A stretch of 64,000 bases of DNA from Escherichia coli. Lineage in GTDB: Bacteria > Pseudomonadota > Gammaproteobacteria > Enterobacterales > Enterobacteriaceae. Position numbers and translations under genes: made by a program. Every line of letters begins with the position of its first letter. The stretch's first letter is position 1. The notes below the pieces were generated by a model. That model searched no databases. It saw nothing but the letters and a program-made list of their open reading frames with translations, and was not told where the DNA came from. Positions 52,882-63,163 of this stretch are shown piece after piece. The DNA lies in assembly GCF_003334315.1 (NCBI RefSeq), contig NZ_QOWR01000023.1; one strand, written 5' to 3'.

Positions 52882-53703
52882 ATGTCGTGTGAAGAACTGG
52901 AAATTGTCTGGAACAATATTAAAGCCGAAGCCAGAACGCTGGCGGACTGTGAGCCAATGCTGGCCAGTTTTTACCACGCGACGCTACTCAAGCACGAAAA
53001 CCTTGGCAGTGCACTGAGCTACATGCTGGCGAACAAGCTGTCATCGCCAATTATGCCTGCTATTGCTATCCGTGAAGTGGTGGAAGAAGCCTACGCCGCT
53101 GACCCGGAAATGATCGCCTCTGCGGCCTGTGATATTCAGGCGGTGCGTACCCGCGACCCGGCAGTCGATAAATACTCAACCCCGTTGTTATACCTGAAGG
53201 GTTTTCATGCCTTGCAGGCCTATCGCATCGGTCACTGGTTGTGGAATCAGGGGCGTCGCGCACTGGCAATCTTTCTGCAAAACCAGGTTTCTGTGACGTT
53301 CCAGGTCGATATTCACCCGGCAGCAAAAATTGGTCGCGGTATCATGCTTGACCACGCGACAGGCATCGTCGTTGGTGAAACGGCGGTGATTGAAAACGAC
53401 GTATCGATTCTGCAATCTGTGACGCTTGGCGGTACGGGTAAATCTGGTGGTGACCGTCACCCGAAAATTCGTGAAGGTGTGATGATTGGCGCGGGCGCGA
53501 AAATCCTCGGCAATATTGAAGTTGGGCGCGGCGCGAAGATTGGCGCAGGTTCCGTGGTGCTGCAACCGGTGCCGCCGCATACCACCGCCGCTGGCGTTCC
53601 GGCTCGTATTGTCGGTAAACCAGACAGCGATAAGCCATCAATGGATATGGACCAGCATTTCAACGGTATTAACCATACATTTGAGTATGGGGATGGGATC
53701 TAA
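52882..53703 (+). CDS. cysE: serine O-acetyltransferase
   Basis: ORF track 273 aa; MSCEELEIVWNNIKAEARTLADCEPMLASF; hexapeptide repeats. Confidence 0.96.
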   Translation: MSCEELEIVWNNIKAEARTLADCEPMLASFYHATLLKHENLGSALSYMLANKLSSPIMPAIAIREVVEEAYAADPEMIASAACDIQAVRTRDPAVDKYSTPLLYLKGFHALQAYRIGHWLWNQGRRALAIFLQNQVSVTFQVDIHPAAKIGRGIMLDHATGIVVGETAVIENDVSILQSVTLGGTGKSGGDRHPKIREGVMIGAGAKILGNIEVGRGAKIGAGSVVLQPVPPHTTAAGVPARIVGKPDSDKPSMDMDQHFNGINHTFEYGDGI

Positions 53704-53717
53704 TGTCCTGTGATCGT

Positions 53718-53750
53718 GCCGGATGCGATGTAATCATCTATCCGGCCTAC
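53718..53750. repeat. REP element after cysE
   Basis: GCCGGATGCGATGTAATCATCTATCCGGCCTAC, canonical REP-type palindrome. Confidence 0.7.
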
Positions 53751-53755
53751 AGTAA

Positions 53756-54229
53756 CTAATCTCTCAATACCGCTCCCGGATACCCCAACTGCCGCCAGGC
53801 TTCATACACCACTACCGACACCGCATTGGACAGATTCATGCTGCGGCTGTCCGGCACCATCGGAATGCGAATTTTTTGTTCAGCGGGCAGGGCATCAAGA
53901 ATGCTCGCTGGCAGGCCGCGTGTTTCCGGGCCGAACATCAGATAATCGCCATCCTGATAGCTTACGGCGCTGTGAGCAGGTGTACCTTTCGTGGTGAGGG
54001 CGAACAGGCGCTGGGGATTTTCTGCTTCGAGGAACGCGCGATAGTCATGATGACGCGTAACGGCGGTAAACTCGTGATAGTCCAGCCCCGCGCGGCGCAG
54101 GCGCTTATCGTCCCAGGCAAATCCCATCGGTTCGATGATATGCAGACGAAAGCCGGTATTAGCGCAAAGACGGATGATGTTGCCAGTATTTGGCGGAATT
54201 TCTGGTTCGTAAAGTACGATGTTTAGCAT
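53756..54229 (-). CDS. trmL: tRNA (cytidine/uridine-2'-O)-methyltransferase TrmL (YibK)
   Basis: ORF track 157 aa; SpoU-TrmH fold ([26 protein letters not shown]). Confidence 0.94.
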
Positions 54230-54235
54230 ACTGCC

Positions 54236-54420
54236 CCCTTAGTGCGGGGGCAGGATAGCAGAAAATTGGTGAGCAGTGCGGCCTTTTCCCCTCACCCCGG
54301 CCCTCTCCCCGGAGGGGCGAGGGAGAAAAAAAGAGTGCGGTGTCGTTTCAGAGTGAGGGAGTACATACAGCGCCGAACGGTCCCCTCTCCCTGAGGGAGA
54401 GGGTTAGGGTGAGGGGGCGC
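54236..54420. repeat. GC-rich interspersed palindromic repeat cluster (motif CCCTCACCC-N3-CCCTCTCC and its inverse) between trmL and lldD
   Basis: Inverted copies GGGGCAGGATAGC..CCCCTCACCCCGGCCCTCTCCCCGGAGGGGCGAGGG and CCCCTCTCCCTGAGGGAGAGGGTTAGGGTGAGGGGG; the same motif recurs at 61040-61100. Confidence 0.55.
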
Positions 54421-54426
54421 AAACGA

Positions 54427-55617
54427 CTATGCCGCATTCCCTTTCGCCATGGGAGCCAGTGCCGCAGGCAACTCTTTACCCAGCCCCTGCACCAGCGAAT
54501 CTTGCGTAATTTCGCTGATCGATTTCGCGCCAGTCAGCGTCATCGCCACTTTCATCTCTTTTTCGATCAGATTTAGCAGGTTAGCTACACCCGCCTGGCC
54601 CGCTGTTGCCAGCGCATACAAGAAAGCACGACCCAGCAGTACGGTGTCGGCACCGAGCGCAATCATACGCACGACATCAAGCCCGTTACGAATTCCGCTA
54701 TCCGCCAGAATGGCTATATCACCTTTCACCGCATCTGCAATAGCAGGCAGTGCACGGGCGGAAGAGAGTACACCGTCCAGCTGGCGGCCACCGTGGTTAG
54801 AAACCACAATTCCATCAGCACCAAAACGTACTGCATCGCGCGCATCTTCCGGATCGAGGATCCCTTTGATCACCATCGGGCCATCCCAGAAATCGCGGAT
54901 CCATTCAAGGTCTTTCCATGAGATGGACGGATCGAAGTTATTCCCCAGCCAGCCGATGTAATCTTCCAGTCCGGTCGGTTTGCCGAGATAAGCTGAGATA
55001 TTACCTAAATCATGTGGACGACCGTTCAGGCCCACATCCCACGCCCATTGCGGATGTGTCACCGCTTGCAAGTAGCGGCGCATTGCCGCGTTCGGGCCGC
55101 TCATACCTGAATGCGCATCACGGTAGCGTGCGCCCGGTGTCGGCATATCCACGGTGAAAACCAGCGTCGAACAACCCGCTGCTTTTGCTCGCTCCAGCGC
55201 GTTACGCATAAAGCCGCGATCGCGCAGTACATAAAGCTGGAACCACATTGGGCGCTTGATGGCTGGCGCGACTTCTTCAATCGGGCAAACGGAAACCGTC
55301 GAGAGAGTAAACGGAATACCATGCGCGTCCGCCGCTTTGGCTGCCTGAACTTCGCCACGACGCGCATACATGCCACACAAACCCACCGGAGCCAGTGCCA
55401 CCGGCATCGACAATTTCTCATTAAACAGCGTCGTTTCCAGGCTTAAGTCGGACATGTTTTTCAGAATACGCTGGCGCAGCGCCACTTCTGACAAATCTTC
55501 CACGTTGCGGCGCAGCGTGTATTCAGAATATGCACCACCATCCATATAGTGGAACAGGAACGGCGGCAGAATGCGTTGCGCTGCGGCGCGATAATCGCTG
55601 GCTGCGGAAATAATCAT
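54427..55617 (-). CDS. lldD: L-lactate dehydrogenase (FMN-dependent)
   Basis: ORF track 396 aa; [30 protein letters not shown]. Confidence 0.96.
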
Positions 55618-56390
55618 GCGTTTTTCTCCCTCGAATGCTCATTATGCTCACCGGGCAGGCGGGTAATCCGTGCGTGGCGAGCCTGATCTTCATCGAATCG
55701 TTTCATGGTGGTGTGAACAAAACTAAGGTGCGCCATCATTGCTTTACGCGCCCCGTCAGCATCACCGGCAAAAATGGCGTCAATGACAGCCTGATGTTGT
55801 TCGGTCAGTTGTGAAAAAACCGGTGGCACCAGATACATCCGCTGACGGCTATGCTTCACTGAGGATTGCAGGACATCGAAGAAACCGCGCATGGTTTGCA
55901 GCAGCACGATGTTATGTGAGGCTTCGGCAATCGCCAGATGAAAACGAACGTCCGCTTGTGAGGCGATATCCGGGTCTTCACTTAGCGTTGCTTCAAAGCA
56001 AAGCTGAATCTTTTCTTTGTCGCCAGGTGTGGCGCGCATTGCCGCATGCCATGCGGTGCTGGCTTCAATGGCGTAGCGGGCTTCCAGAATATCGAAACTG
56101 TAATCCGGATCATCGGCCATCAGTGTTTTTAGCGGCTGGACGATGTTTTGCTCCGACCATGTGTCATGACGCCAGCGAATAAACGTCCCGCCGCCGCGTC
56201 GACTGAGCAGCACGCCTTCACTCACCAGTTTTGCCAGCGCCTCGCGCAGTGAATTACGTGATACGCCGAGTTGCATCGCCAGTTGGCGCTCAGCGGGCAA
56301 CTTCATGCCCGCTTCCAGGTTTTTTTCATCAATCAGCGCCCGCACACGATCGGCAACCTCGTCTGACAGGCGTCTGGGTAAAACAATCAT
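55614..56390 (-). CDS. lldR: L-lactate operon regulator LldR (GntR/FadR family)
   Basis: ORF track; [23 protein letters not shown]; 4-bp overlap with lldD. Confidence 0.94.
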
Positions 56391-58045
56391 TAAGGAATCA
56401 TCCACGTTAAGACATAAGCCTGAAGCGTGGTGATCACGCCCACTATACAGGTGAAGATCAGGCTGTGTTTGACAGTAAAGCGGAACAAATCAGACTCTTT
56501 GCCCACCAGGCCTACCGCCGCACAGGCGATAGCGATAGATTGCGGGGAGATCATCTTACCGGTGACGCCACCGGTGGTATTGGCGGCAACCAGCAACAGA
56601 TCAGAGACGCCAATTTGTTGTGCTGCGGTGGCTTGCAGCGCGGCGAACAGGGCGTTAGATGAGGTATCCGACCCGGTCAGGAATACCCCCAGCCAGCCGA
56701 GGAACGGCGAGAAGAAGGTGAATGCATGACCGGTGTGCGCCAGTGCCAGCGCCAGTGTTGATGACAGTCCGGAATAGTTCGAAATAAAGGCGAATGCCAG
56801 CACCATACCGATGGAGTAGATGGGCAGAGCCAGTTCTTTCAGCGTGCTGCCGAAGGTGCTGATAGCGTCAGACGGTTTCATCTTCAGCCAGACAATCGAG
56901 AGCAGTGCAGCAAACAGAATGGCGGTGCCGGTGGCAGAGAACCAGTCAAACTTAAACACGGCGGCATAGGCTGTAGCCTCGCTGACCACTGGCGGCATAC
57001 GGGCAACCAGTTTATCGAGGTACGGCACCGGAATATTGATCACCCACTCATACAGCGCGCCACCCGATGCGAACAGGGCTTTAAACGGCGGGATACTCCA
57101 CAGTGTTACGGTAGCTGTCAGGAACAGGAACGGTGTCCAGGCACGTAACACCTGACCCGCAGTGTAACCGGTGTGGGCCAGCGTCATATCAACCTGTGAC
57201 GCCCCCAAATCACCAAAACGGAATACACGCACTGGCTGCCAGCGTTTGAGGAACAGCGTCAGGCAGAGCAGTGATACCAGCGAAGAGATAATGTCCGGCA
57301 GCTCCGGCCCAATGAAGTTAGAGCTAAGGTACTGAGCGATGGCAAACGAGCCGCCCGCAACCACGACCGCAGGCCACGTCTCTTTGATACCGCGCCAGCC
57401 GTCCATAATCGCCATGATCCAGAACAGCACGATAATGGTCATAAACGGTAGCTGCCGCCCCACCATCTGACCAATCTCAAAGCTGTCGATACCTGTTACC
57501 TGTCCGGCAACCAGGATTGGAATGCCCATCGCACCAAATGCCACTGGCGCGGTGTTAACAATCAGGCACAGCCCGGCGGCGTACAGCGGTTTAAAACCCA
57601 GGCCGACCAGCAATGCGGCGGTAATTGCTACCGGTGCGCCAAAGCCTGCGGCTCCTTCAAGGAACGCGCCGAAACAGAAACCGACGATCAGCATTTGCAG
57701 ACGCTGGTCAGGGGTTATCGAAAGAATAGACGAGCGAATGATGTCAAACTGCCCGGTTTTCACCGAGATCTTATAGACGAACACCGCTGCAATAATGATC
57801 CACGCGATGGGCCACAACCCGTAGAAGAAACCATAAACCACCGAGGCCAGCGCGTTAGCGACCGGCATTTTATAGAACAGCAAAGCCACGGCAAGGGCGA
57901 TTGCCACCGTCCACGAGGCGGCGACGTATCCTTTCAGTTTGAGCTTAATCAGCGCAAAGAAGAAAAACAGGATGGGAAGCGATGCTATCAGACTGGAAAG
58001 CCAGATATTCCCGGCGGGATCGTAGTTTTGTTGCCAGAGATTCAT
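56390..58045 (-). CDS. lldP: L-lactate permease
   Basis: ORF track; [29 protein letters not shown]. Confidence 0.95.
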
Positions 58046-58334
58046 TGCAGGTCTCCTGGAGTCCACGCACATCGTGTAATGAGTCTGTTGCTCATCTCCT
58101 TGTCACACGTTGTGTAAAAGTGGCACTGCCAATTGTGTTGTGTAGGGATAATGACAATGAATGGTTAACTAAATGTTATGTATTGGCAACATTGATGTGA
58201 GTTTTAATTGGGAAATTGTGAACCAGAGGTCAGATAAGCGAAGAATTGGTAGGGCCAATTCTTGTGGGGGGAGATGTCTGGTAAAGAAAAGGGCAATCCT
58301 CATCAGAGAATTGCCCTTAGGTTGTTGATCCAGA

Positions 58335-58385
58335 GCGCCTTATCTTGCCGGATGCGGCGTGAACACCTTACTCGGCCTATAGGAA
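58335..58385. repeat. REP element upstream of lldP / downstream of yibL
   Basis: GCCGGATGCGGCGTGAACACCTTACTCGGCCTATAGG. Confidence 0.65.
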
Positions 58386-58416
58386 TGTGCAGAATCACCC
58401 TGTAGATACTGTGTTC

Positions 58417-58779
58417 TTAAAACGCGGTCTTTGAAAACCCAGTCATCTCCTGCAGGCCCATTTCGCGGCCCAGTGCGGTCATTGGGTGCACAACGACCAG
58501 TCCGCGAACACTTTTCTTCAGCTTGCCCATATCAGCCTGCTCTTTTTTGGTAATTGCGCGCTGGAATGGCATCTTCATCAGCTTCTGTGCTTCTTTACTC
58601 AGTTTTTGGCTATGAACTTCACGCAGGCGAGCAATTTCTGCTTCCAGCGTGGCTTTCTCTTTTTCCAGCTCGGCATATTTGTCTGCGGCTTCAACCAGCG
58701 AAAGATCGGCCTGCTGGTGGCGGATGGCGTCCAGGCGATCGCTGAGACGTTTGATTTCGTTTTTTTCGACTTCTTTCAT
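58417..58779 (-). CDS. yibL: ribosome-associated protein YibL
   Basis: ORF track 120 aa; [31 protein letters not shown]. Confidence 0.88.
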
Positions 58780-59063
58780 GTGATGGCTTCTGATAAAGAT
58801 AAATTTATAGCCCCTAGTATGCGCGACCAGGTGCTTTGTTCACAACTAATGACATTGTAATAGTTCTGTAACGTAATCATTAACATGCTCAAAAACTACG
58901 CAATTCGTTGATTAATTAAGAAATCTATAGAAAAAAGATAATAAACAGCAGCGGATGATTATTGAGGATTCAGCACGTTTTCCTTAATGTCATCTTTACC
59001 GGGAACCTAAACTAAAATTGGCGGCCGCGCATTCCCGGCGCGGGGTAATACGGAGATATCATC

Positions 59064-59273
59064 ATGGGCAAATTAGGTGAAAACGTTCCGCTTCTTATCG
59101 ATAAAGCCGTAGATTTCATGGCATCAAGCCAGGCGTTCCGGGAGTATCTGAAAAAACTTCCTCCCCGTAACGCGATTCCGTCCGGAATACCCGATGAAAG
59201 CGTGCCGTTATATCTACAACGTCTGGAGTATTATCGTCGGCTTTATCGGCCGAAGCAGGTAGAGGGGCAGTAA
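59064..59273 (+). CDS. yibT: small protein YibT (69 aa)
   Basis: ORF track 69 aa [34 protein letters not shown]; conserved position between yibL and mtlR. Confidence 0.6.
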
Positions 59274-59284
59274 GCAGACGTTGC

Positions 59285-59872
59285 TTACTTTTGAAAGGCT
59301 TTTTTTAAGCTGATTTTGGAAATCAGCTCAGTCAGTGAAAGGACCATTGTTGATCGCACAGCCTGTTGATAGCGCTGAATTTGCATTGCATACAAACTGG
59401 AGTCTGCTGGTTCAAACTGTGGCGGCGGTGGTAACGCCGCCACGCAGTGCAGTTCACCAAAGGGTCCAAGGATTTCGTCGTCGGTAAAGGCGTACTCGTT
59501 GCCGTCGTGATTTAGCTCTTCACGCAATGCCATCAGCAGTTCCGCATCTTCGTATTCCTGGCGGTTAATGACGCCCAACCCGTAAATGAGTTTTAAACGC
59601 ACAGAAAGATCGCCCAGCGGACCATCGCCGTCGAGTAACGGTTCTACAGCATACTTCACCGCGTAATCGTCTTTGCGGAATACCTGAAGCACCAGAAGAT
59701 TTACCGCCTCGGTCAGGAGCTCGACGGCGGTGATCAGAAAGCTTCGCACGGTTTTGCCAGCATTCAGACGCTCAAGCACACGGTTTTCAAAGGCCTGGGT
59801 TTGTTCCATTGTTGCCTGCATATCTGACAATCTGTTATTCGGGCGCAGGGTGTCCTGCGCCTGGTCCACCAT
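59285..59872 (-). CDS. mtlR: mannitol operon repressor MtlR
   Basis: ORF track 195 aa; immediately downstream of mtlD. Confidence 0.92.
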   Translation of the reverse strand: MVDQAQDTLRPNNRLSDMQATMEQTQAFENRVLERLNAGKTVRSFLITAVELLTEAVNLLVLQVFRKDDYAVKYAVEPLLDGDGPLGDLSVRLKLIYGLGVINRQEYEDAELLMALREELNHDGNEYAFTDDEILGPFGELHCVAALPPPPQFEPADSSLYAMQIQRYQQAVRSTMVLSLTELISKISLKKAFQK

Positions 59873-61020
59873 TATTGCATTGCTTTATAAGCGGTTACCG
59901 CCTCGGATACAACCTCGCTGTTGGCATCAAGACCGGAAATCTGTGCCAGCGCCGCCTGCGGACCTTTGTCAGCGATCAGTGCTGCCAGTTCCTGAGCCTG
60001 CGGATCATCTTCACTGCGGAAGTGCATTGCAGCGGCAATACCTTCAATCAGGTTTTTATGTGGCAGACCATATTCCAGCGTACCGAGCAGTGGCTTGATC
60101 AGACGGTCGCCAGCACTCAGTTTACGCAGTGGCTGACGGCCTACGCGCTCTACATCATCTTTCAGATACGGGTTCTCAAAACGGCCGAGAATTTTCTGGA
60201 TGTACGCCGCATGCTTGTCAGCGTCAAAGCCGTAGCGCTTGATCAATACTGCACCACTTTCTTCCATCGCACCTTTTACCACCGCGCGGATTTTCTCGTC
60301 GAGAATCGCGTCACGAATGGTCTGATGACCGGCCAGTTTTCCGAGGTACGCGGTTATAGCATGACCCGTGTTCAGGGTGAAGAGTTTACGTTCGACAAAT
60401 GCCATCAGGTTGTCGGTTAACTCCATGCCTGGGATGTTCGGCAGTGCGCCTTTGAACTGCGTTTTATCGACAATCCATTCGCTGAAGGTTTCTACCGTCA
60501 CTTCCAGCGGATCGTTAGTTGCCGAAGCCGAAGGCGGTACGATGCGGTCAACGGCGGAATCGACAAAGCCAACGTGTTCTTCTACCCACGCTTTGGCGTC
60601 TTCCGGCAGGGCGTTCATCACATGGCCTTTCAGCTGCGTGGTACCGCGTACCATGTTTTCACAGGCGATGATGTTCAGCGGGGATTCATTACCTTGTTCT
60701 TTACGTTTCACCAGCCCTTTGGCGATTGCCGGAGCAATACGTTCCAGCACAACCGGGCCAACGGCGGTAGTGACTAAATCAACCTGAGCAATCAGATCAA
60801 CGACATCATCACCAATGCTGCTGACAGCATTGACGCCGGAAACGGTATCTACCTGCTCGGTTTCACCAACCACATGTACCTGATAGCTATGACGGGCATT
60901 CAGGGCATCAAGTACCACCTGATTGACATCGGCAAACGTCAGTTGGATACCCGCGTCTGCCAGCAGTTTACCGATAAAGCCACGACCGATATTACCTGCG
61001 CCAAAATGTAATGCTTTCAT
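59872..61020 (-). CDS. mtlD: mannitol-1-phosphate 5-dehydrogenase
   Basis: ORF track (488 aa with a long upstream extension); known start [20 protein letters not shown] at 61020. Confidence 0.95.
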
Positions 61021-61039
61021 AGTATTAACCTTCATCAAT

Positions 61040-61215
61040 GTTTTTACCCGAGAGGGCTGGGGTGAGGCTTTTCCCTCACCCAAACCCTCTCCGTGAGGAG
61101 AGGGGCAGCGCCGGATGCGGCGTAAGCGCCTTATCCGGCCTACAAGAACGTGCAAATTCAACAAATTGTGATGCATCCTGTAGGCCTGATAAGCGTAGCG
61201 CATCAGGCAATTAAC
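61040..61215. repeat. intergenic repeat cluster between mtlA and mtlD: GC-rich CCCTCACCC/CCCTCTCC-type unit plus a REP pair
   Basis: GGGTGAGGCTTTTCCCTCACCCAAACCCTCTCCGTGAGGAGAGGGG followed by GCGCCGGATGCGGCGTAAGCGCCTTATCCGGCCTACA and the inverted copy TGTAGGCCTGATAAGCGTAGCGCATCAGGC. Confidence 0.7.
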
Positions 61216-61249
61216 CCCACCTTCTCCATGTGGAGAGGGTGGGATTGGA

Positions 61250-63163
61250 TTACTTACGACCTGCCAGCAGTTCCAGCACTTCATCCACGCTGGTGGTGTG
61301 TGCCAGACGCTCGATGACGGACTCATCATCCAGTGCATTGGTCAGGCTGGTGATAACCTGAATGTGCTCGTTGTTACGGGCAGCAATACCAATCACCAGA
61401 CGGGCAATGTCATCTTCTTCTTCACCGAAGCGCACGCCTTCCGGGTACTGGCAGAACACGACGCCCGTTTTCAGTACGCGATCTTTCGCTTCAACCGTAC
61501 CGTGTGGCACCGCGATAGACTCACCCAGATAAGTCGGGGTCAGTTTTTCACGATCCAGCATCGCCTGAACGTATTCCGGCTCAACGTAACCGCCTTTCAC
61601 CAGCTGCTCGCCAGCAAAACGAATCGCTTCTTCTTTGGTTGCCGCTTTGCGACCGAGGAAGATGTTCTCCGCGCCTAGCTTGAACAGGTTAGCACTGGAA
61701 TCGTCAAAGCTGTCTTTCAGGCTGTCTTTTACTTTCTCTTCGTTTGCCGTGTGGCGTTGGGCAGCAACCAGACGTTCGGTCAGGCTGGTGTACAGGCCGC
61801 TGTCGAGGAAGTTGGTCAGCGAAATATGCTGTGCCTGCGGAACCTGGCGCATAGCGCGTTCGGTCAGGTCACGGTGAGTGATGACGAGGTCCACATCTGG
61901 CGGCAGGTTGTTGATCGCGCTGTTAGTAACAGAAATCTGCGACAGACCTGCATCCTGAATTTTCTTACGCAGAACGCCTGCGCCCATCGCACTGGAACCC
62001 ATACCGGCGTCACAGGCAACGATGATTTTACGTACGTGGCTCAGGTCGTTAGTCACATCGCCAGCAGACAGCGGAGATGCGCCTTTAGACTCAGCTTTCA
62101 TGTCCTGCATACGACGAGTTGCTGCTTCAATATCATCTTCTTCTTTCACTTTGCTGGTTTTCAGCAAAATAGCAGAGACAACGAAGGAGACAGCCATCGC
62201 CGCACACACACCCGCGATGTTAGCGAAGTAAGCACCTTTTGGTGTCATCGCCAGTACAGCAAGGATAGAACCCGGAGATGCCGGAGAAACCAGACCACCG
62301 CCCAGGATAGTCAGCGTGAACACGCCAGTCATACCGCCGAGGATGACTGCGAGGATCAGACGCGGATTCATCAGCACATACGGGAAGTAGATTTCGTGGA
62401 TACCCCCCAGGAAGTGGATGATTGCCGCACCGCCCGCAGACTGTTTAGCGCTACCACGACCAAAGAACATGTACGCCAGCAGCACGCCCATACCTGGACC
62501 TGGGTTAGCTTCAATCAGGAAGAAGATTGATTTACCCAGTTCATGGGACTGCTGAATACCCAGCGGCGAGAAGATACCGTGGTTAATGGCGTTGTTGAGG
62601 AACAGGATTTTCGCCGGTTCAACAAAGATAGACGCCAGCGGCAGCATGTCATGGACAACCATGAAGTTAACGCCCGCAGCCAGCATTTTGGACAGGGCTT
62701 CAACAATCGGGCCAATGCCGAGGAATGCCAGAATAGCGAGGATCATCCCGATGATGCCTGCGGAGAAGTTATTCACCAGCATCTCAAAACCGGATTTGAT
62801 CTTACCGTCTACCCAGCGGTCGAAGTGCTTAATGCACCAGCCGCCCAGCGGACCTGCAATCATAGAACCGAGGAACATCGGCATGTCTGCGCCGACGATA
62901 ACGCCCATGGTGGTGATGGCACCGACTACGCCGCCACGTTCGCCGCCTACCAGCTTACCACCGGTATAACCGATCAGCAGCGGCAGGAGATAAGTGATCA
63001 TCGGCCCGACCAGCTTCGCCAGCGTCTCGTTCGGTAACCACCCTGTTGGAATAAATAACGCGGTGATGATACCCCACGCGATAAACGCGCCGATATTTGG
63101 CATCACCATGTTGCTGAGGAAACGACCAAAGCTTTGCACTTTGATCTTAATATCGGATGACAT
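61250..63163 (-). CDS. mtlA: PTS mannitol-specific EIICBA component
   Basis: ORF track 637 aa; [32 protein letters not shown]. Confidence 0.96.

Follow-up and report, generated by a model that had tools for sequence, protein, structure and literature searches.

Between trmL (53756-54229, minus strand) and lldD (54427-55617, minus strand) of Escherichia coli lies a spacer of 197 bp that carries GC-rich inverted repeats, and a related sequence stands in the mtlA–mtlD spacer (61022-61250, between mtlD and mtlA) of the same window, the window being the whole 64-kb stretch of DNA analysed here. What are these repeats, and do they matter to the genes beside them or only to the DNA that carries them? 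The original prediction held that they belong to a small interspersed repeat family that could fold into long RNA hairpins. In this report, we show that the lldD–trmL inverted repeats and their degenerate mtlA–mtlD relative are copies of the BoxC family, also described as PIT or TMECO ('triplex motif'), and we put at about 90% the probability that they are BoxC copies to be read as intergenic repeats, neutral or selfish, that chiefly make the DNA around them structurally unstable. These repeats are already known and named, and both lldD–trmL copies were catalogued in 2015.

The repeats belong to the BoxC family

The window sequence is that of E. coli K-12, 100% identical to MG1655-type genomes, and is the reverse complement of NC_000913.3, window position x corresponding to MG1655 coordinate 3835444 − x. 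The gene context claimed for the repeats (trmL/lldD and mtlD/mtlA) is correct according to the annotation, and the flanking genes are co-oriented at both sites. Comparison with the annotation placed both lldD–trmL copies and the mtl copy between annotated genes, in non-coding DNA, which agrees with the claim that no coding feature explains them; the RefSeq annotation of NC_000913.3 marks no repeat feature in the region.

The two-part motif that had first drawn attention, CCCTCACCC-N3-CCCTCTCC, has three exact matches, 54289-54308 (+), 54396-54415 (−) and 61073-61092 (+), and a fourth that departs from it by two mismatches (61049-61068, −). The first two of these matches are the two inverted copies claimed between trmL and lldD, and they lie within inverted arms (54288-54309 and 54395-54416) of 22 nt that are 86% complementary; the range first given for the cluster, 54236-54420, covers both repeats but also includes an unrelated conserved hairpin at 54228-54256. 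The possibility that these are GC-rich words clustered by chance and unrelated to one another has nothing in its favour except the low complexity of the motif, and it is refuted by the shuffles and by the MG1655 genome: four motif matches were present in the window versus none in 100 dinucleotide-preserving shuffles, the stricter published 27-base pattern had two window matches versus none in 200 shuffles, and MG1655 has 23 near-identical copies.

BoxC was named in the 1990s and re-described in 2000 as potential triplex elements, its literature including Bergler 1992, Bachellier in the 1990s, and Hoyne & Maher 2000 and 2002. The first description reportedly concerned a copy beside envM, now called fabI, and one MG1655 BoxC copy adjoins fabI. 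Holder et al. (2015, NAR 43:10126; PMC4666352) identified TMECO, a G/C-rich 'triplex motif' of the pattern 5'-CCCTCNCCC-N3-6-GGGNGAGGG-N3-GGGNGAGGG-3', as the same element as BoxC and PIT; the passages of that paper that cite Hoyne and Maher credit them with describing the BoxC element as PIT (potential intrastrand triplex) elements (PMC4666352). A literature search aimed at the first account of BoxC and at papers later than 2015 returned Holder et al. 2015 only (PMC4666352).

Table 1 of that paper contains 23 TMECO copies in MG1655, among them no. 17 (CCCTCTCCCTGAGGGAGAGGGTTAGGGTGAGGGG, 3,781,061-3,781,028, type A) and no. 18 (CCCTCGCCCCTCCGGGGAGAGGGCCGGGGTGAGGGG, 3,781,121-3,781,156, type B, one mismatch), and its Table S2 gives lldD and trmL as the genes flanking #17 and #18, with the pair 3' of lldPRD and #17 at 11 nt from lldD (PMC4666352). 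Window positions 54383-54416 (+) and 54288-54323 (−) are identical to #17 and #18, respectively, in both sequence and coordinates. Both copies conform to the published core pattern, and their second loops are TTA in #17, as in type A, and CCG in #18, as in type B; thus, the rule that a pair joins type A with type B holds at lldD–trmL. MG1655 has five such inverted TMECO pairs, each of one type A and one type B copy and with 17+18 among them, and the family is described as always intergenic, without strand bias and not associated with transposons, phages or plasmids (PMC4666352). A permissive Rfam search over 53000-62500 gave no family match on the repeats.

The observation is therefore real, and its reading as an interspersed repeat family is confirmed. 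The original prediction had itself named, as a result that would count against it, the mapping of the motif to an already named family; the motif does map to one, BoxC/PIT/TMECO (PMC4666352), so that this clause applies and the family interpretation is correct but without novelty.

Anatomy of the units in the window

A BoxC unit comprises about 56 bp of non-coding DNA with a core of 34-37 nt, in which three blocks can be read: first a C-tract (CCCTCNCCC), then the G-tract complementary to it (GGGAGAGGG) and last another G-tract (GGGTGAGGG). The two-part motif had thus caught a genuine part of the repeat, but the full unit consists of three blocks (C-tract, G-tract, G-tract), and the GGAGGGG/CCCCTCC 'core', although present, is merely the loop-proximal portion of the hairpin of unit #18.

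BoxC/TMECO #17 (54383-54416, +; type A, loop TTA) reads CCCTCTCCC-TGA-GGGAGAGGG-TTA-GGGTGAGGG(G), matches both the catalogue and the strict pattern, and with its conserved flanks extends over about 54365-54427. It has 9/9 Watson-Crick pairs and 9/9 allowed third-strand triads, and its DNA hairpin is computed at −9.3 kcal/mol. BoxC/TMECO #18 (54288-54323, −; type B 'mm', loop CCG), which with conserved flanks covers about 54275-54336, has one G·A mismatch in the proximal hairpin and hence 9/10 Watson-Crick pairs, with 10/10 triads; its nhmmer E-value of 2.7e-17 against the type B profile is a circular score because that profile contains #18. The two copies are arranged head-to-head, their 5' flanks (GCGCCGAACGGTC in #17, type A; GCAC...TTTTTCT in #18, type B) facing inward across a 59-nt spacer (54324-54382) that includes both flanks and a partial GTGAGGGAG segment. 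In their three-block core, TTA/CCG loops, inverted A+B pairing, intergenic site and conserved flanks, #17 and #18 resemble the other catalogued BoxC copies, but they form the sole head-to-head pair, with a 59-nt spacer, whereas each of the remaining four in MG1655 is tail-to-tail, with 16-27 nt between its copies.

At mtlA–mtlD, the claimed recurrence of the motif stands as an exact match (61073-61092), although what recurs is one copy with 8-nt stems plus a truncated inverted partner. The former (61073-61105, −) is type-A-like and reads CCCTCTCC-TCAC-GGAGAGGG-TTT-GGGTGAGG, with 8/8 Watson-Crick pairs and 8/8 allowed third-strand triads. It is absent from Table 1 and Table S2 (PMC4666352) and, owing to its 8-nt stems, fails the strict published pattern, from which its TTT loop also departs; nevertheless, profiles built from MG1655 copies that exclude it match 61067-61105 (−) with nhmmer E-values of 7.7e-6 (type A) and 2.4e-5 (type B), and it is best called a degenerate BoxC member. 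The partner (61050-61067, +) is type-B-like, reads GAGAGGG-CTG-GGGTGAGG, has lost its C-tract and corresponds to the two-mismatch motif match; its nhmmer E-value against the type B profile is 0.027. Together they form inverted repeat I1 (18 nt, 89% complementary), tail-to-tail with a 6-nt spacer and with loops TTT (A-like) and CTG (B-like, as in #8). Searching the 64-kb window with the BoxC profiles gave nothing beyond the lldD–trmL pair and the mtl pair.

A REP pair had also been predicted beside the mtl copy, and one does abut it at about 61107-61210: this BIME consists of inverted repeats I3 and I5 with GCCGGATGCGGCG/CTTATCCGGCCTAC and represents a family separate from BoxC, and a sub-threshold Rfam match to the REP-derived naRNA4 lies at 61084-61140. 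Just 3' of mtlA is a BoxC-like hairpin (61213-61246, −) with the core CCTTCTCCA-TG-TGGAGAGGG; it is a direct repeat (D1) that is 86% identical to 61084-61104, and its DNA fold is computed at −9.7 kcal/mol (z −3.0).

BoxC in E. coli and in other lineages

The strict pattern re-found 23/23 MG1655 copies in 18 regions, all of which were fetched. Alignment of these 23 copies gave the flank consensus GnGCnCGnaCgGTC + core + GAAcag for type A and TTTTCY + core + ..GCGCAC for type B; #17 and #18 each bear the flanks proper to their type, and their nhmmer alignments span 62-63 nt. Since conserved flanks thus lie outside the 34-37-nt core, the repeated unit is roughly 56 bp, and the original descriptions of the 1990s reportedly gave a size of 56 bp as well. 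The 56-bp figure used here comes from our own alignment.

A 36-nt consensus had matches in 5426/5426 complete E. coli genomes; the median genome had 19 places and the range was 1-32. Nearly all of the 92,765 places were chromosomal, 365 being plasmid-borne. Both this genome-wide count and the 23 strict MG1655 copies bear out the proposal of a small interspersed repeat family. The region of the cryptic prophage CP4-6 contains two of the 23 copies of MG1655 (NC_000913.3 282101-282136 and 289246-289279), which is slightly at odds with the published lack of association with mobile elements (PMC4666352).

A strict-pattern scan of one genome per species gave at least 120 stretches, a number that shows breadth and is no taxonomic census. 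Among the matches listed, several copies of the strict core, flanked by conserved sequence peculiar to the lineage, were found in each of two Pseudomonas species, a Polaromonas MAG, a Methylomagnum MAG, a Verrucomicrobiales MAG, the unclassified MAG GL140_5 (>25 copies in two subfamilies) and others. A Scytonema genome, a Bacteroidaceae MAG and a Methanomicrobiaceae MAG, again among the matches listed, have a single strict-core copy each, and for the MAGs in general contamination is possible. Pseudomonas sp. dw_612 combines type A and type B copies in head-to-head composite units of about 200 bp, and the type A 5' flank CTCGGTCAGTC is common to this species and E. coli. A possible homology between the spacers of these composites and the E. 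coli head-to-head spacer was rejected, since local alignment scored approximately as shuffled sequence did (z at most 1.4). The breadth of the family is largely known already because TMECO has been reported in 3610 copies in 262 proteobacterial genomes, and Hoyne et al. are cited there for the occurrence of this sequence in E. coli, Synechocystis and H. influenzae (PMC4666352).

Allelic variation at the two spacers

The lldD–trmL locus was found in 5421 genomes, and allele shares were estimated from an evenly spaced sample of the ranking. The K-12 allele (197 bp, ~22%) has the intact pair. In the O157 allele (185 bp, ~28%), a 12-bp deletion between the direct repeats CCCTCACCCCGG and CCCTCTCCCCGG has removed the third block of #18; the B/BL21 allele (153 bp, ~15%) has a 35-bp perfect palindrome in place of the inner hairpin halves and the spacer; the 118UI allele (72 bp, ~7%) retains a remnant; and the B2 allele (47 bp, ~25%), found in Nissle and ST131, is without repeats. 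The 59-nt segment between the copies is missing from other E. coli alleles or replaced in them. Coverage of at least 80% was obtained in 3522/5421 genomes for a 401-nt query and in 2715/5421 for a 251-nt query, in agreement with the share estimates.

The palindrome of B and T7 Express, CTGTCTCTTGATCAGGAGATCTGATCAAGAGACAG (L003 205-239), replaces the inner halves of both BoxC copies together with the 59-nt spacer, and 33 of its bases recur unchanged in other E. coli genomes, in sequence covered by 'IS4/Tn5 family transposase' features. The palindrome may therefore be a trace of an IS50-like element, either its footprint or a solo end.

Alignment of the 197-bp and 47-bp alleles showed 21 nt replaced by 171 nt between divergent flanks, and bases beside the spacer, the final codons of lldD among them, are not the same in filled and 47-bp alleles. 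Neither a target-site duplication nor a clean insertion boundary was found in this comparison, which likewise did not show the MITE signature of terminal inverted repeats plus a target-site duplication, and insertion of a mobile element with target duplication was rejected. Given the flank differences and the lack of a duplication, the polymorphism looks like allele replacement plus internal deletions and not like clean transposition; as judged from the alignments, the difference between filled and 47-bp alleles would reflect replacement by recombination rather than a simple in-place deletion.

These comparisons bear on a mobile, REPIN- or MITE-like reading, whereby a doublet of types A and B would be moved in trans by an enzyme whose recognition needs conserve the core across phyla. 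Such a process would fit the range of 1-32 copies among E. coli genomes, the invariable pairing of type A with type B and, among the matches listed, the multi-copy strict core within lineage-specific flanks in Pseudomonas, Polaromonas, the Verrucomicrobiales MAG and others, as well as the composites of about 200 bp in Pseudomonas sp. dw_612 and the CTCGGTCAGTC flank that they have in common with E. coli; it is opposed by the absence of a target-site duplication or a clean boundary, by the dissimilar spacers in the two species (z at most 1.4), and by the published lack of association with transposons, phages or plasmids (PMC4666352), with only 365/92,765 places on plasmids. A transposase was also sought between inverted copies, in the one wide interval examined (843 bp; L118 2800-3645), and was rejected there: the interval consists of tandem degenerate repeats with spurious 62-aa ORFs only and holds no transposase-like ORF, which again counts against mobility. 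We therefore regard mobilization of this kind as decidedly unlikely.

At the mtl spacer, the BoxC remnant is invariant in the five allele classes, and the number of REP pairs among strains is 0, 1, 2 or 4. In the allele of strain N3, everything between the two GGAGAGGG hairpins (61097-61104 and 61233-61240) is deleted, with the hairpin at 61213-61246 as an endpoint. TMECO surroundings have been reported to be more variable than controls, often through small intergenic deletions that leave a hairpin (PMC4666352), and the variation at lldD–trmL and mtl matches this published link of TMECO with local instability.

Folding and regulatory signals

The 211-nt lldD–trmL transcript is predicted to fold with the two BoxC units paired into one long, stable hairpin (−94.3 kcal/mol, z −4.2), as had been suggested for the repeats, and RNA folding of the mtl spacer gave −111.6 kcal/mol (z −8.3), here with the REPs as part of a series of hairpins. 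By analogy with REP/BIME elements, the inverted pair at the 3' end of lldPRD and on the 5' side of trmL might therefore act at the RNA level, shielding the lldD message against 3' exonucleases or modulating read-through into trmL. Both folds, the co-orientation of the flanking genes at each site and the position of the pair 3' of lldPRD (Table S2, PMC4666352) speak for such a role. However, no hairpin followed by a T-run, the signature of an intrinsic terminator, is present on the transcribed strand of either spacer, and scans of that strand gave no promoter-like or terminator-like site in either. The published tests of PIT elements, so far as the paper summarizes them, were negative for terminator activity, promoter activity and an effect on RNA polymerase (PMC4666352), and the absence of a strand bias in the family (PMC4666352) also argues against a role at the RNA level. 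Moreover, about one-quarter of the sampled E. coli genomes have the 47-bp repeat-free spacer and about another half have a disrupted one; with repeat-free and disrupted spacers so common, the structure is evidently dispensable. An RNA-level function is thus unlikely.

A separate 8-bp GC hairpin (54228-54256; transcribed strand, CTGCCCCC / GGGGGCAG) stops 1 nt short of the trmL ATG, so that the probable Shine-Dalgarno sequence falls within it; 7/7 lldD–trmL allele classes, the 47-bp spacer included, carry it unchanged, and it could be a translational control element for trmL. Elsewhere, the yibL–lldP spacer has a sub-threshold Rfam match to STnc380 at 58219-58327 (+; 36.4 bits against a gathering score of 60), and sub-threshold REP-type naRNA4 matches lie at 58337-58377 (−) and 53712-53747 (−), one of which falls in the cysE–trmL interval.

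As single-stranded DNA, each unit is predicted to form the expected hairpin between C-tract and G-tract. In the predicted minimum-energy DNA fold of #18, the C-tract takes the distal G-tract as its partner, a pairing that involves a G·T wobble, so that the common 'mm' form would have two alternative hairpins. The G concerned is a recurrent one within the C-tract (CCCTCGCCC), which is treated as a 'mismatch' in the literature and wobbles with a T of the distal tract; the same G variant recurs in distant phyla among the matches listed. The modelled folds suggest that this variant represents alternative hairpins, not decay.

Discussion

The model attached to this family is that, when the G-rich strand becomes single-stranded, the first two blocks would form a hairpin and the third block would lie in its groove, giving a purine-motif intrastrand triplex. 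CD and NMR have demonstrated triplex formation in vitro for type A, B, A mm and B mm oligonucleotides, and an ordinary duplex was obtained once the complementary strand was added; in vivo, DMS footprinting gave no sign of a triplex (PMC4666352). As a base-count check, the triad bookkeeping for the copies in the window (9/9 for #17, 10/10 for #18 and 8/8 for the mtl copy) is compatible with the model, against which it must be said that it does not account for the common 'mm' G·T wobble with the distal tract. The two G-tracts could also be read as GGG-AGA-GGG-TTA-GGG-TGA-GGG, a canonical four-tract G-quadruplex motif, and this pattern is directly readable in both lldD–trmL copies; the possibility was acknowledged by Holder et al., whose CD spectra are compatible with it (PMC4666352). 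Yet 1H-NMR gave 18 sharp imino signals instead of the 3-4 expected of a quadruplex, the oligonucleotide gave an ordinary duplex with its complementary strand (PMC4666352), and a quadruplex would leave the conserved C-tract without a role, all of which makes the quadruplex scarcely credible as an explanation.

With a head-to-head pair of types A and B between lldD and trmL and a decayed tail-to-tail pair beside REPs between mtlA and mtlD, the BoxC copies are most likely functionally neutral or selfish, and we infer that what they chiefly cause is local indel instability. Hairpin or triplex formation, in conjunction with short direct repeats, may promote slippage and deletion, and this would account for the series of indel alleles at lldD–trmL. 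According to Holder et al., PIT elements blocked DNA polymerase in vitro, and tests for promoter and terminator activity, for an effect on RNA polymerase and for any other in vivo effect were negative (PMC4666352). The link from structure to instability is a correlation only, in the literature and in our data, and the mtl spacer speaks against it, in that the REP array varies while the BoxC remnant stays invariant. The negative DMS footprint in vivo and the recombination-like difference between filled and 47-bp lldD–trmL alleles count against this reading as well.

The multi-copy core in distant phyla hints at something more specific than neutral drift. By analogy with REPINs, BoxC could be an element that is mobilized in trans or recognized by a protein, with the A+B doublet as its functional unit. 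If true, this would cover the 33-36-nt core that recurs with its G 'mismatch' in multiple copies in distant phyla within lineage-specific flanks, the constant A+B pairing, the 1-32 copies within one species, and the lldD–trmL head-to-head pair that mirrors the composites of Pseudomonas sp. dw_612; nevertheless, we strongly doubt it, and neutral or selfish repeats that destabilize their surroundings remain our preferred reading.

The practical value of this identification lies in annotation, for the MG1655 RefSeq record is unmarked here and scans therefore keep rediscovering BoxC. Three points are added by our analysis to what was known: one BoxC site followed across 5,421 genomes is a five-state allelic series; the mtlA–mtlD spacer carries an uncatalogued, fixed, degenerate BoxC pair; and the common 'mismatch' variant can, in the predicted fold, pair with the distal G-tract instead.

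Among other known systems, a likeness exists to REP/BIME elements and to REPIN doublets, which are mobilized by RAYT transposases. Like BoxC, these are short GC-rich palindromes present between genes in multiple copies; they form inverted doublets made of two subtypes, lie where indel variation is concentrated and are transcribed within operons. They differ in that the BoxC sequence is unrelated and has three blocks rather than a simple palindrome, and in that BoxC has about 20 copies whereas REP has several hundred. We know of no RAYT-type gene associated with BoxC, and none was found. The REP signature, an imperfect palindrome of ~35 bp with GCCGGATGCGGCG...CTTATCCGGCCTAC, is absent from the BoxC repeats, and no naRNA4 match was obtained in 54230-54426 at E-values up to 1; the neighbouring 61107-61210 does agree with the REP consensus, and the true REP pair that adjoins the mtl copy is clearly distinct from the BoxC remnant. 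A second likeness is to H-DNA and polypurine·polypyrimidine tracts, with which BoxC shares purine-motif triads (G*G·C, A*A·T and T*A·T) and reported genetic instability; however, H-DNA arises from a mirror repeat in supercoiled duplex, whereas BoxC needs a single strand with three consecutive blocks of 8-10 nt each.
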